Source: Chrysemys picta bellii (lineage: Eukaryota). Taken from it: DNA of 64,000 bases. The stretch covers positions 206,770,001 to 206,834,000 of the forward strand of contig NC_088793.1 in the NCBI RefSeq assembly GCF_011386835.1, given 5' to 3'. This document shows positions 3,001 through 64,000 of this stretch, in pieces. The translations under genes were made by a program, and so were the position numbers. How positions within the stretch are numbered: position 1 is the stretch's first letter; each line of letters opens with the position of its first letter. The notes beneath the pieces were generated by a model. That model saw only the letters and a list, made by a program, of their open reading frames with translations. It was not told the DNA's origin and made no database searches.

Positions 3001-4022
3001 GCAACACATTCCAATTTCTCAAGAACAGCACATAGCGAAGACTTAAGCACACAGCCTCCTATTCGGACTGTACTAGATTGAGATGGAAGTGGGGAAAGTC
3101 TTGCCCTGAAAAACTAAATTAATGGAAAAAATAAGCATGCCCCCTTAGCTGGCGAGTAAAATGCTTTCTGGAGGCTGGATCTCTATCTCCAGAGCCCAAG
3201 ACAAACACACTGTTTGAACACTGAATGAGCTCAATCTTACCAAAACATTCATAAGTGCCTGAGTTCCTGCTAATTCCAGAAAAACTGTGTGTTAATATGC
3301 GACATCATTTGTTATAGCAAGTTACTCTGTATTGACACTACTCCAGATGCGTCTTTCTTGGCAGCATCAGCGCCCAGGGCGAAGGGTGCTCTGGGTAGCA
3401 CTTTTAATATAGAATGTGTGTTTGCATGTCAGCTCTTCCTCTGCTGACAGTCAGGGTGTTACAATAGTGAGAAACTCAAGCTTCCTCTAGTACCTTCTCC
3501 GTATCGCTCAAATCCACCACTTTTCTCCCCATGCTTAATGGAACTCCGATGTCAATTTATCCCCGCGCTTGCCTCTCCCTCCCAAGCAAACTGCAAGCTC
3601 TCTTCTACCACTCAGTTCGCCTCTCAATAACATTTTGGACCGTGCCAAGGAAACTTCTGTTCCATTCAGGATTCCTTCTTTCTGCTAGCTATAGCTTCTC
3701 CTCTCCATTGTCCTTGCTCTCAATGCAGGCTTCACTACTGTATTCTAGCCCATCCGCATAGGCGGCTCTGGCATATCTAACTGTGCTCCCCTTCAAGTCT
3801 CTATGTCTATGGAATGCCACAGGGTTCAGTTCTCACCCTCTGTCTTTTACAACTATCTTCCTGCCTCAATCTGCCTCTCTCTACCTTTGACATTAAGTAC
3901 CACGTTTAAGCGCATTAAGTTCCTTATTCAGCAAAGCTGTTGAAGAGAGAATTTGAAAGAAAGATGCCATACAAAAGAGAGGAGTTGTACAGGTGTGATG
4001 TTTTGCAAGATGAATGCCTTAC

Positions 4023-61353: not shown

Positions 61354-61477
61354 GATTGCGTGTACTTGATTCCAGACCCCTTTCCGTCTAGAAAGCCATA
61401 CTTTGTGTCAATCACCTCCTTTGTCTTCCCAGTTTCCTCAAAGGCAGATTTCAGCTCTACTGCCACATACTTACACA
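61354..61477 (-). CDS. CNPY3: CNPY3 exon 2
   Basis: [40 protein letters not shown]. 124 nt, donor GTAAGT. Confidence 0.96.
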
Positions 61478-62399
61478 CTGGAGAAGAAAAAACACAAACA
61501 GGTTAGTGGGCATACTGAACTGTACTGCCCTCCTAGAGATCTTGCCTGTTTTAGGTACAGGTAGGCCATTTTCAGCAAGCAGGGCTATTTTAGAAGCAGA
61601 TGCTTGGAGTTAAGCATGACTAACTAAAGTGTCCTCATCTAGCTTGTTTTCAGGGAACACTCTCTATAATTATTTAACAGACAAGACAACACACAAAGCC
61701 AGACACCCCAGCTACTGTATTTGGGAGAGGGAGTTTTTAATTCCAGAGTTTTTCAGTTGAGAAATTAGTGAAGTATTGTGCAACTGCTAAAGACACTCAA
61801 ATGCTAGAGACACTCAAGTCAGTGGATGCACCATCACCCAGAGCAAGCAGTTCACCCTGTCTCTAGATATTTCACACCACAACCTCCGCTGCTTCCCCGC
61901 CCCCCCCCCACCACACACTTTGGCCTGCCTCTTCCCCCCACCCTTACCCCCCAGAATCTATTATTCCTATTTGTCCCACTCTTCAATCACCACCCTCTTT
62001 ATTGGCATGGGATTTCCCCCCAATACTTAGGTCTCTCCTTTACTTTCTTGCTTAAATGCCTTGCATTGTAGAAACCCTCCCCCCCCCCCCCCCAAACATC
62101 TGACAGAGTGAGCCATGACCACTGGAGCAAGAAGTAGCAGTTCCCTTTTCTCACTGTGCCTTCTCCCCACCCACTACAGGAAATGTGCCTCTATGAACCG
62201 CAGTGAGAGAAACTTGGGGAAAGAGCCAGAAGCCACAACTGTCAGCACGGAAACTGCTGTCCTCCTTTCCTCCAGGGCTGCGTGGGATACCATGGACCCC
62301 TTCACCCTATCAGATTGCTTGTCGCTCCTCTAGAGCGTCCACATGGGGCCATGATCAGTGCTCTTCTCCCTCCTATCACTCGCCCTGCCTGCCCCAGAC

Positions 62400-62660
62400 C
62401 CACCCTACTCCCCCTGGCCTCCTCCAGCCCCCTCATTGCCTCCGACATTCCCCACCCTCCTCCCCCTGACCTCCCCCAGCCCCCTCATTGCCCCCTGACC
62501 TCCCCAGACCCCTCATTGCCCCCGACTTTCCCCACCCTCCTCCCCCTGACCTCCCCAGACCCCTCATTGCCTCCGACTTTCCCCACCCTCCTCCCCCAGA
62601 CCCCTCATTATCCCCGACTCCCCCCCCCCCCCGATCCTTCGGTCCACAGTGACCCCGACT
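62400..62660. repeat. C-rich degenerate minisatellite in CNPY3 intron 1
   Basis: Repeating ccccctgacctccccagacccctcattgcc(t/c)ccgactttccccaccct. Confidence 0.8.
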
Positions 62661-62672
62661 TCCCCCCCCCCC

Positions 62673-62674
<2 letters not shown>

Positions 62675-62713
<39 letters not shown>
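62675..62713. repeat. (GCC)13 trinucleotide repeat preceded by C13
   Basis: 13 perfect GCC units. C run at 62662-62674. Confidence 0.95.
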
Positions 62714-62717
62714 TCAC

Positions 62718-62832
62718 CCTCGCACTTGCTGGGCAGCCGGACCCACTCGGTGTCGTCGGCTCCGCCGGCCAGAGCCGGGCTCAGCAGCAGCGGGAGCAGC
62801 AGCAGACCGGCGGCGGGGCCCGGCTCGGCCAT
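62718..62832 (-). CDS. CNPY3: Canopy 3 (PRAT4A) exon 1: signal peptide and WVRLPSKCE
   Basis: gccgccATGG Kozak. MAEPGPAAGLLLLPLLLSPALAGG...DTEWVRLPSKCE. 115 nt, donor GTGAGG. Confidence 0.95.
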
Positions 62833-62849
62833 GGCGGCGGGACGGGGAG

Positions 62850-63120
62850 CAGCCGCGCTGGGGGGCGCGAGGAACGTGCGCTTTGGGCAGGCAGCTCCTC
62901 CACACTCACTTCCGGGAACCTTCCTTTCCCGCCCCCAACGTCACTATAACGACAGCAGCGCCCCCAATCACAGCGCCGAGCGTGTCAAAGACCGGCCAAT
63001 GGCCAGGCGAGGAGCGACCGCCTCGGTTCTGCCAGCCAATGGGGGGAGGCAGGAAGCTCTACCGCAAGCTCAACCAATGAGGTGGCTTCTAACGGCTTCG
63101 GCGTCTCTGACTCTAGGAGC
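62850..63120. promoter_or_regulatory. CNPY3 CpG-island promoter, probably bidirectional, with three CCAAT boxes
   Basis: CCAAT at 62996, 63036 and 63074 (40 and 38 bp apart, same orientation). CpG-dense. Plus-strand donor at 63186. Confidence 0.7.
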
Positions 63121-63637
63121 GGCGGGAATCCTGGTCTCTCAGAGCAGCGGCCTCGAGCGGGGGTTCGCGCAGGAGCGCGCGCCAGGTGAGGTGAGGTGAG
63201 GTGAGGTGGGCAACGGCCGGGGGGAGCGGGGGCCGCCCGTGGCCTGTGAAGGGAGGGGACGAGGAGCGAGCGGGGGCGGGTCGGGCCGGTAGGCGTTGTG
63301 GGGGGGCGGCCTAGGGGTCGGTGAGGAGACGCCCGTGGCCTGTGAAGGGGCGGGTGAGAGGAGGGGGGAGAGGAGCGAGCCGGGGGGGGGGGCGGTGAGG
63401 GAAGCGGGCGGGGGGGCGCCCTGTGAAGGGAGGGGGGCTCGAGGATGCCCCCCACTCTGCTTCCATGGCGCCTTGGTACAGAAGATTTGACAATCTAATC
63501 TACCTTTATTCTCCTTTCAGTTCAAACTGCAGCCACCTTGGTGCATGTGTCCTGTCTAACTGGCCTCATTCTCCCAAGCTGGGACTGACCTCTGGTATCC
63601 GACTTGAGAATTTGTAGTCTTCAATTCAGTAAAAAAC

Positions 63638-64000
63638 ATGGATCGTTTGCCCAGGACTGGGACACACAGGGATCAGCAGGAGCCCAGTGCAACCGCAGTT
63701 TCAGCTGATTCAACCACTACTGTTGGCTGTAGCAGTGCCAATGCAGAGGAGGCCATGCATGGTTTACAAGTTCAACCTGGGAAGCGTGTGACAGAGCAGG
63801 ACCCAGAAAGGGTGTAAAAAAAAATGCAAACATGATGAGAGCTACATTGAACTTGGATTTACATGGCCTGGGGACGCTGGATATCCTCAGCCGCAGTGTG
63901 TTCTATGCGGTGAAGTTTTACCAAACAACAGTCTTAAACCGTCCCTTCTTCGCCAGCATCTAGAGACTGAACACAATCAATTTAAAGACAAACCGGCTCA
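63638..64000 (+). pseudogene. hAT/Buster-type transposase N-terminus with BED zinc finger (ZBED5/ZBED8/FAM200-like); one frameshift; runs off the window; gene or pseudogene unresolved
   Basis: aaacATGG start gives MDRLPRTG... for 59 aa to TAA at 63815. The frame from 63810 reads GCKKKCKHDESYIELGFTWPGDAGYPQPQCVLCGEVLPNNSLKPSLLRQHLETEHNQFKDKPA (CxxC...HxxxxH) and stays open to 64000. Confidence 0.8.

Follow-up and report, generated by a model that had tools for sequence, protein, structure and literature searches.

At the end of a 64,000-nucleotide stretch of Chrysemys picta bellii DNA (the window; contig NC_088793.1, positions 206,770,001–206,834,000) stands a broken reading frame for a Buster-type hAT transposase, and the question that it raises is whether the host has made a gene of it. 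Three options had been set out in a preliminary description: an intact domesticated gene disturbed by an assembly indel, a recently pseudogenised one, or a promoter-captured transposon. Promoter capture fits best, recent loss of a domesticated gene is weakly supported, and an intact gene is refuted. The locus is probably a promoter-captured, transcribed transposon pseudogene, the product of which is likely to be a non-coding passenger RNA and not a protein. Positions past the window end are given on segment L006 (G000:C3:206832501–206842500), where adding 62,500 yields the window position.

The host partner of the frame is CNPY3, the first coding exon of which occupies 62658–62832 of the minus strand (lower end approximate), with its ATG at 62832 by translation; exon 2, at 61365–61487, matches PF11938 above the cut-off (E = 2.5e-4). 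The exon 1 donor is directly followed by short C-rich tandem repeats, with a (GCC)n run some 13 units long (62400–62715). The head-to-head arrangement first proposed is confirmed. Lying between CNPY3 and the transposase is a CpG island (62650–63450; GC 0.737, CpG observed/expected 0.83), a likely bidirectional promoter. Four plus-strand CCAAT boxes in the island (62964, 62996, 63036 and 63074) fall within 115 bases and make up four of the seven matches in the 3,361-base locus, a total count not above chance. Downstream of the element, both on the minus strand, are PTCRA (PF15028, E = 1e-35) and an RNA polymerase second-subunit gene; the order of PTCRA and CNPY3 is the same as in human. Tandem repeats rich in GC, with long open frames on each strand, lie just upstream of PTCRA (L007:4413–5725).

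Beginning at the ATG at 63638 is the transposase N-terminus (63638–63817, plus strand), a frame of 59 codons (MDRLPRTG...DPERV) stopped by a nonsense TAA at 63815–63817. An A9 run (63816–63824, plus strand), by its sequence one base out of frame, forms the first break site together with the TAA. The next frame (KKKCKHDESYIELGFT...PQCVLCGEVLPNNSLKPSLLRQHLETEHNQFKDKP) is open as far as the window end and carries a BED-type zinc finger (63825–64000, plus strand); both frames are as they had been described. The finger was not called by Pfam above the cut-off (zf-C2H2_12, E = 0.015), and its assignment is based on homology and on the four retained C/C/H/H columns of C-x2-C and H-x4-H. Past the window end follows a whole Buster-type hAT transposase, up to a native stop at L006 3090–3092, with 57% identity over 587 codons between the turtle copy and a coelacanth Buster-type protein (P0008). 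Owing to this continuation, the finger frame is not a chance one and, with the four finger ligands kept, the Buster/hAT origin proposed from the finger stands.

It had been suggested that removal of one base, for example T63815, would fuse the two frames. The frame break exists, but not as a single lesion: it consists of the TAA and an extra A in the A-run (L006 1315–1324, window 63815–63824). As a paddlefish relative (P0126) reads ERVSKK here, with serine at the position of the TAA, the TAA is a nonsense change, and a single-base slip is not the history of the site. Further along are a 2-base deletion near L006 1545 (site 2), a 1-base deletion at 2013 (site 3), in-frame TAA codons at 2402 and 2888 (sites 4 and 5), and a +1 frameshift near 3062–3065 (site 6). 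Of what the extended sequence was expected to hold, the full transposase with its catalytic D, D and E codons was found and the right TIR was lost, and with them came three more frameshifts and two more stops; multiple downstream stops had been named as evidence against domestication. Both histidines of the HCxIH motif, including the CxxH histidine, are changed in the window copy.

Diverging from CNPY3 is a spliced RNA, the non-coding exon 1 of which (63089–63185, plus strand, 5' end approximate) ends at a donor GT at 63186–63187. Exon 2 starts at 63521, inside the remnant of the transposon 5' UTR (63482–63637, plus strand), which has lost the left TIR and about 90 bases, with a further 91-base deletion inside; from this remnant come the acceptor AG (63519–63520), a CTAAT branch point (63495–63499) and the pyrimidine tract. 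A transposon-born donor GT is located just behind the native stop (L006 3096–3097). Both splice sites flanking the transposon exon are the element's own. The donor sequence is present in all three long paralogues described below, and among 12 relatives the branch point occurs in 11–12 and the acceptor AG in four; three purine-to-pyrimidine changes in the acceptor tract are private to the window copy (none of the 12 relatives), a pattern noticed post hoc.

Both junctions are seen in a contig of run X20, which at the acceptor continues into sequence ending at L006 685 (exon 1) and after L006 3093 continues into L006 6187 onward (exon 3), with GT–AG contexts. Contigs of X3 and X4 extend by 97 and 93 more letters and have the same depth over exon 1, implying that they share this first junction; in all, three species labels show or imply the exon 1–2 junction. 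The RNA status of the runs is a guess (X3 is labelled 'DNA?'), and it is the junction itself that shows splicing. Splicing from the CNPY3 CpG island to the transposon acceptor, first read from canonical signals, is thereby borne out, and the spliced transcript whose possible absence had been raised does exist. Pieces at L006 3200–4180 in X3, X4 and X20 indicate that read-through or unspliced forms exist as well. A ribosome on the spliced form would reach the stop after 59 codons, with the last known junction still some 1.8 kb downstream, which makes this form a predicted target of NMD. Of exon 3, 30 bases are seen on one contig of one run; its start falls between the stop of the PTCRA-like transmembrane exon, 68 bases away, and the nearest minus-strand AATAAA (L006 5876), and the exon is predicted to overlap the PTCRA 3' UTR in antisense. 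PTCRA and the divergent RNA stand tail to tail (L006:6187–6400, L007:1794–2285).

Contigs of four of the 24 runs listed were aligned to L006 220–4180: X3, X4 (organism B), X11 (organism C) and X20 (organism E). X3 is a separate sample, and its organism label is that of the best holder of the sequence. Its contigs match the assembly without gaps over L006 1019–1790 (772 bases, no differences), 1925–2205 (281 bases, no differences) and 2232–2967 (736 bases, one difference, at 2943). Five of the six break sites are reproduced exactly, site 6 being outside the coverage, and assembly error was therefore rejected as the cause of the breaks. The A-run of the first site has the same length in X3, X4 and X20 and is one A shorter in X11, where the A at 1317 is missing, the T is retained and, among the substitutions listed, the TAA is still in frame. 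X11 spans L006 906–2466 with 10 gap letters, all of which a 9-base intron deletion and the A at 1317 explain, so that both the 1545 and the 2013 break are retained in organism C. From the gap totals of X20 (L006 1018–3093; 25 gap letters, as 6 + 18 + 1 at 3065), organism E keeps the breaks at 1317, 1545 and 2013 and is without the last one. Organism B (X4) keeps the 1317 break and has three further gap letters in the coding part. No open frame is seen in the contigs of X3, X4, X11 or X20.

In Terrapene the copy is represented by XP_026508959 (P0001), the name of which, 'ZBED5-like', is the source's automatic one, and at least four Terrapene transcript accessions share this model. P0001 is 95% identical to the window copy over 395 residues and is an orthologous copy by 24 derived residues that the two have in common against the paralogues. 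The preliminary description had considered that the element might be absent from the orthologous locus in relatives; it is present in organisms A, B, C and E and, by the shared residues, in Terrapene. The model begins at an internal methionine just after the 1545 break, that is, after the finger, and ends after 397 residues, before the third catalytic residue; it is open across 2013 and 2402, where the window copy has two breaks. PF27073, PF27046 and PF14291 are found on P0001, and 223 of 3,058 candidate relatives match it at E ≤ 1e-100. Word-based and cluster-based searches for further turtle proteins, which give weak evidence, returned none with this finger among 22 candidates, only the partial P0001 among 242 candidates for an intact orthologue via the C-terminal piece, and none with the N-terminus among 1.84 billion representatives. 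None of six frame pieces of the window copy was found in the protein collection, which reflects annotation only.

The window copy corresponds to L006 982–3496 of the element, its 3' UTR remnant reaching 3496, and both TIRs are absent; as had been noted, element homology starts upstream without a left end. Three further long copies (L008, L009 and L010) were found in two DNA searches with 5 and 6 matches in all, at 79–86%; over the coding sequence and both UTRs they are 80–82% alike to the window copy. L008 and L010 have both TIRs and L009 the right one only; L008, 3.3 kb long with short TIRs, is flanked by an exact 8-bp TSD. Buster elements follow an 8-bp TSD rule with a central TA. No TSD could be found for the window copy, whereas the short element L025 also has an exact 8-bp TSD and L027, L028 and L033 have near-exact ones. 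Non-autonomous derivatives with both ends, 234 to 1,345 bases long, include L025, L027, L028, L030, L032 and L033. In the left-end search all 40 scored matches among 123 candidates were short relatives, so the family has at least 40. Dispersed copies with TIRs and TSDs, listed beforehand as counting against domestication, thus exist, although they are old and not near-identical. Neither blastn of a whole paralogue, which matches only this locus, nor a TIR-pattern search (0 matches) found a further end of the family elsewhere in the window, and the earlier suggestion that MITEs in the window could be bound by such a protein falls away for its own family. A younger insertion from a longer-active subfamily was considered and is not supported, as the total divergence of the window copy equals that of L009 and the 2:2 splits (13, 10 and 5) give no clear sister.

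The genome contains over 100 other Buster-type matches as well, the majority from different families. One of them, L035 (G000:C19:25658905–25663077), has an open frame of 618 residues, so long Buster frames are not rare in this genome. L035 belongs to a younger family with copies 87–97% alike, proteins of which recur in other turtles, and is either a recent element or a better candidate for domestication than the CNPY3 locus.

Outside turtles, the closest relative of the family is the paddlefish (Polyodon spathula) protein P0126, with 78% identity over 76 residues to the finger and 70% over 57 residues to the low-complexity N-terminus; its match takes in window 63638–64000 and L006 1138–2308. 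It is the only credible N-terminus match among the 1.84 billion representatives, the other two of three matches being multi-stretch ones taken as low-complexity chance. In a quick tree of 35 proteins, in which P0126 fills 48% of the columns, P0126 is sister to P0001 (SH-aLRT 96). That a segment in decay is so alike on both sides of the fish–tetrapod split points to horizontal transfer, which is common for Busters as outlined in PMC12637253; the closeness to paddlefish suggests that the family is a candidate for it. A broken Buster copy of another family (L011:4337–5853, G000:C2 at about 233.877 Mb), 80% identical over 501 codons to P0008 and with 13 breaks, is a second candidate for horizontal transfer.

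The capture that we favour would have proceeded as follows. The family, probably acquired horizontally, would have spread in the ancestral turtle genome, leaving the four long and many short copies observed. One copy inserted between CNPY3 and PTCRA, some 650 bases away from the start codon of CNPY3, and did so before the Terrapene split, as dated by the shared derived residues. There, divergent transcription of the island would have found the latent acceptor in the 5' UTR and the donor behind the stop, giving the order exon 1, transposon exon, exon 3; the splicing is seen in contigs, and the sharing of the promoter is suggested by position. Both TIRs were deleted, and in the likely absence of lasting selection on the protein the frame decayed, as the breaks show and as the support for near-neutrality agrees with.

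On a per-codon yardstick drawn from the four copies, divergence per site is 0.057–0.064 for the window copy and 0.059–0.085 for the dead paralogues. A dN/dS well below 1 had been named as the sign of domestication; pN/pS is near neutral instead, at 0.87 (0.54–1.43; 440/625 codons), 0.79 (415 codons), 0.68 (0.45–1.07; 536 codons) and 0.64 (0.42–1.00; 536 codons, other weighting). Fisher comparisons with the paralogues taken together yield p = 0.33, 0.23 and 0.037, uncorrected for several tests, 0.037 being reached in the settings with the most codons.

It is unlikely, although part of the evidence leans that way, that the copy was once domesticated and has since been lost, having served as a DNA binder or a repressor of transposition, catalytically dead and under selection for part of turtle history; its decay would then have been independent or just before the Terrapene split, and it may be intact in other turtles. 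The values of 0.64–0.68 in the larger codon sets argue for such a past, as do six synonymous against four replacement changes in the finger region, but the ranges reach 1.0–1.4 and the dead copy L009 also has 0.84–0.91. Changed residues that occur in the family are enriched in the window copy (23/48, against 52/187 in the paralogues; p = 0.009) and the acceptor tract has improved, yet columns with 80% or more conservation across 110 homologues changed at the neutral rate (13/48 against 59/187; p = 0.60), and seven of 95 near-invariant columns, including both HCxIH histidines, are changed in both the window copy and Terrapene. Nor is the window copy closer to the paddlefish outgroup (71% over 262 common codons) than one of two dead copies (67% and 72%). 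A deficit of breaks again favours a spell as a gene: six sites (seven lesions), against 16 and 15 in paralogues, for a Poisson P of 0.05–0.09 after rate scaling. Weaker CpG decay behind the fewer stops was tried as an explanation and not shown (CpG-prone sites kept, 21/65 against 46/195 in paralogues; p = 0.19). The open core of 397 codons in Terrapene, where paralogues have 8–11 breaks, has a chance of 0.006–0.05 for 11–7 expected breaks and of 0.14 for 5; the same model, however, is without the finger and the third catalytic residue, and the searches found no turtle protein with finger or N-terminus, which is weak evidence. The loss of both TIRs and the gain of a 5'-UTR intron also match the usual layout of domesticated hAT genes, as outlined in PMC3257199. 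Taken together, the evidence reads as mostly neutral decay, with a weak trace of constraint that an early spell may have left; near-neutrality is supported, not proven.

A fuller history is doubtful to a similar degree: a horizontally transferred transposase, wired to the CNPY3 promoter, would once have been a catalytically dead, turtle-specific ZBED-type gene, lost in several lineages, now surviving as a PTCRA-antisense RNA and perhaps intact in some turtles.

Very unlikely is a job for the RNA itself, in which divergent transcription would tune the CNPY3 promoter or exon 3 would act on PTCRA (pre-T-cell receptor alpha) as antisense to its last exon. The recurrence of the first junction across species labels, the Terrapene accessions, the strengthened acceptor tract and the position of exon 3 inside the predicted PTCRA 3' UTR are consistent with it. 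Against it, exon 3 is known from its one contig, X3 and X4 show read-through pieces, no Rfam family matches anywhere in L006 and L007 (20 kb), and CpG islands commonly give rise to divergent RNAs as by-products. That the gene is intact and the break at 63815 an assembly error, as the tendency of assemblies to slip in A-runs would allow, is practically out of the question, given that five more breaks follow, in-frame stops at two of the sites, and that an independent sample has five of the six sites.

As a captured pseudogene, the locus would be a tidy example of how capture begins, from the divergent transcription of an island and latent splice sites, and otherwise an ordinary transcribed transposon fossil. 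It also cautions that a turtle gene model named 'ZBED5-like' may turn out to be a transposon in decay. If selection preserves the frame in other turtles, the locus would be a ZBED gene specific to the lineage and lost repeatedly, with an immune-related gene on either side; in that case, or if the RNA regulates PTCRA, it would matter more than as a fossil. A literature search, which most subscription papers fell outside, found no paper that treats this locus or Buster domestication in turtles.

Active Busters are 2.5–3.0 kb long, encode 597–677 amino acids and have TIRs of 14–16 bp and an 8-bp TSD, as outlined in PMC12637253. The Buster transposons described there (TcBuster, AeBuster and SPIN) share with the turtle family a single frame of 640–650 codons with BED finger, DDE core and hAT C-terminus, and L008 is like them in its length, short TIRs and TSD. 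Unlike active Busters, the window copy has no TIRs, no findable TSD and no CxxH histidine, and has six breaks. In Hermes the C/DxxH histidine is in the active site and contacts the scissile phosphate, as outlined in PMC7780238. The window copy is accordingly unable to move or mobilise.

Among domesticated relatives, ZBED5 (Buster1), ZBED8/C5orf54 (Buster3) and FAM200, as outlined in PMC3606216 and PMC3257199, are alike in the loss of TIRs, a non-coding first exon, a single coding exon, a host promoter and the Pfam families found on the orthologue. Unlike them, the locus has no intact frame in any sample seen here, and the window copy shows near-neutral decay; the Terrapene protein is open at two of the window breaks but is without the finger and C-terminal part. 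TIRs are lost here as in a domesticated gene, but three old paralogues exist. Unlike ZBED5 and ZBED8, it groups with the paddlefish protein and with fish and coelacanth transposases; since those human genes are absent from the tree, non-orthology to them follows from the locus and the four-copy family. By this comparison, the locus appears to resemble the first step of a ZBED5/ZBED8-type domestication, without the intact, selected frame.

Transposon-derived divergent lncRNAs and transcribed pseudogenes occur at CpG-island promoters. They are likewise spliced, non-coding and head to head with a host gene, and have a transposon-derived exon. Unlike them, the window copy contributes a near-whole transposase as one internal exon of 2.07 kb, bounded by splice sites of the element itself.
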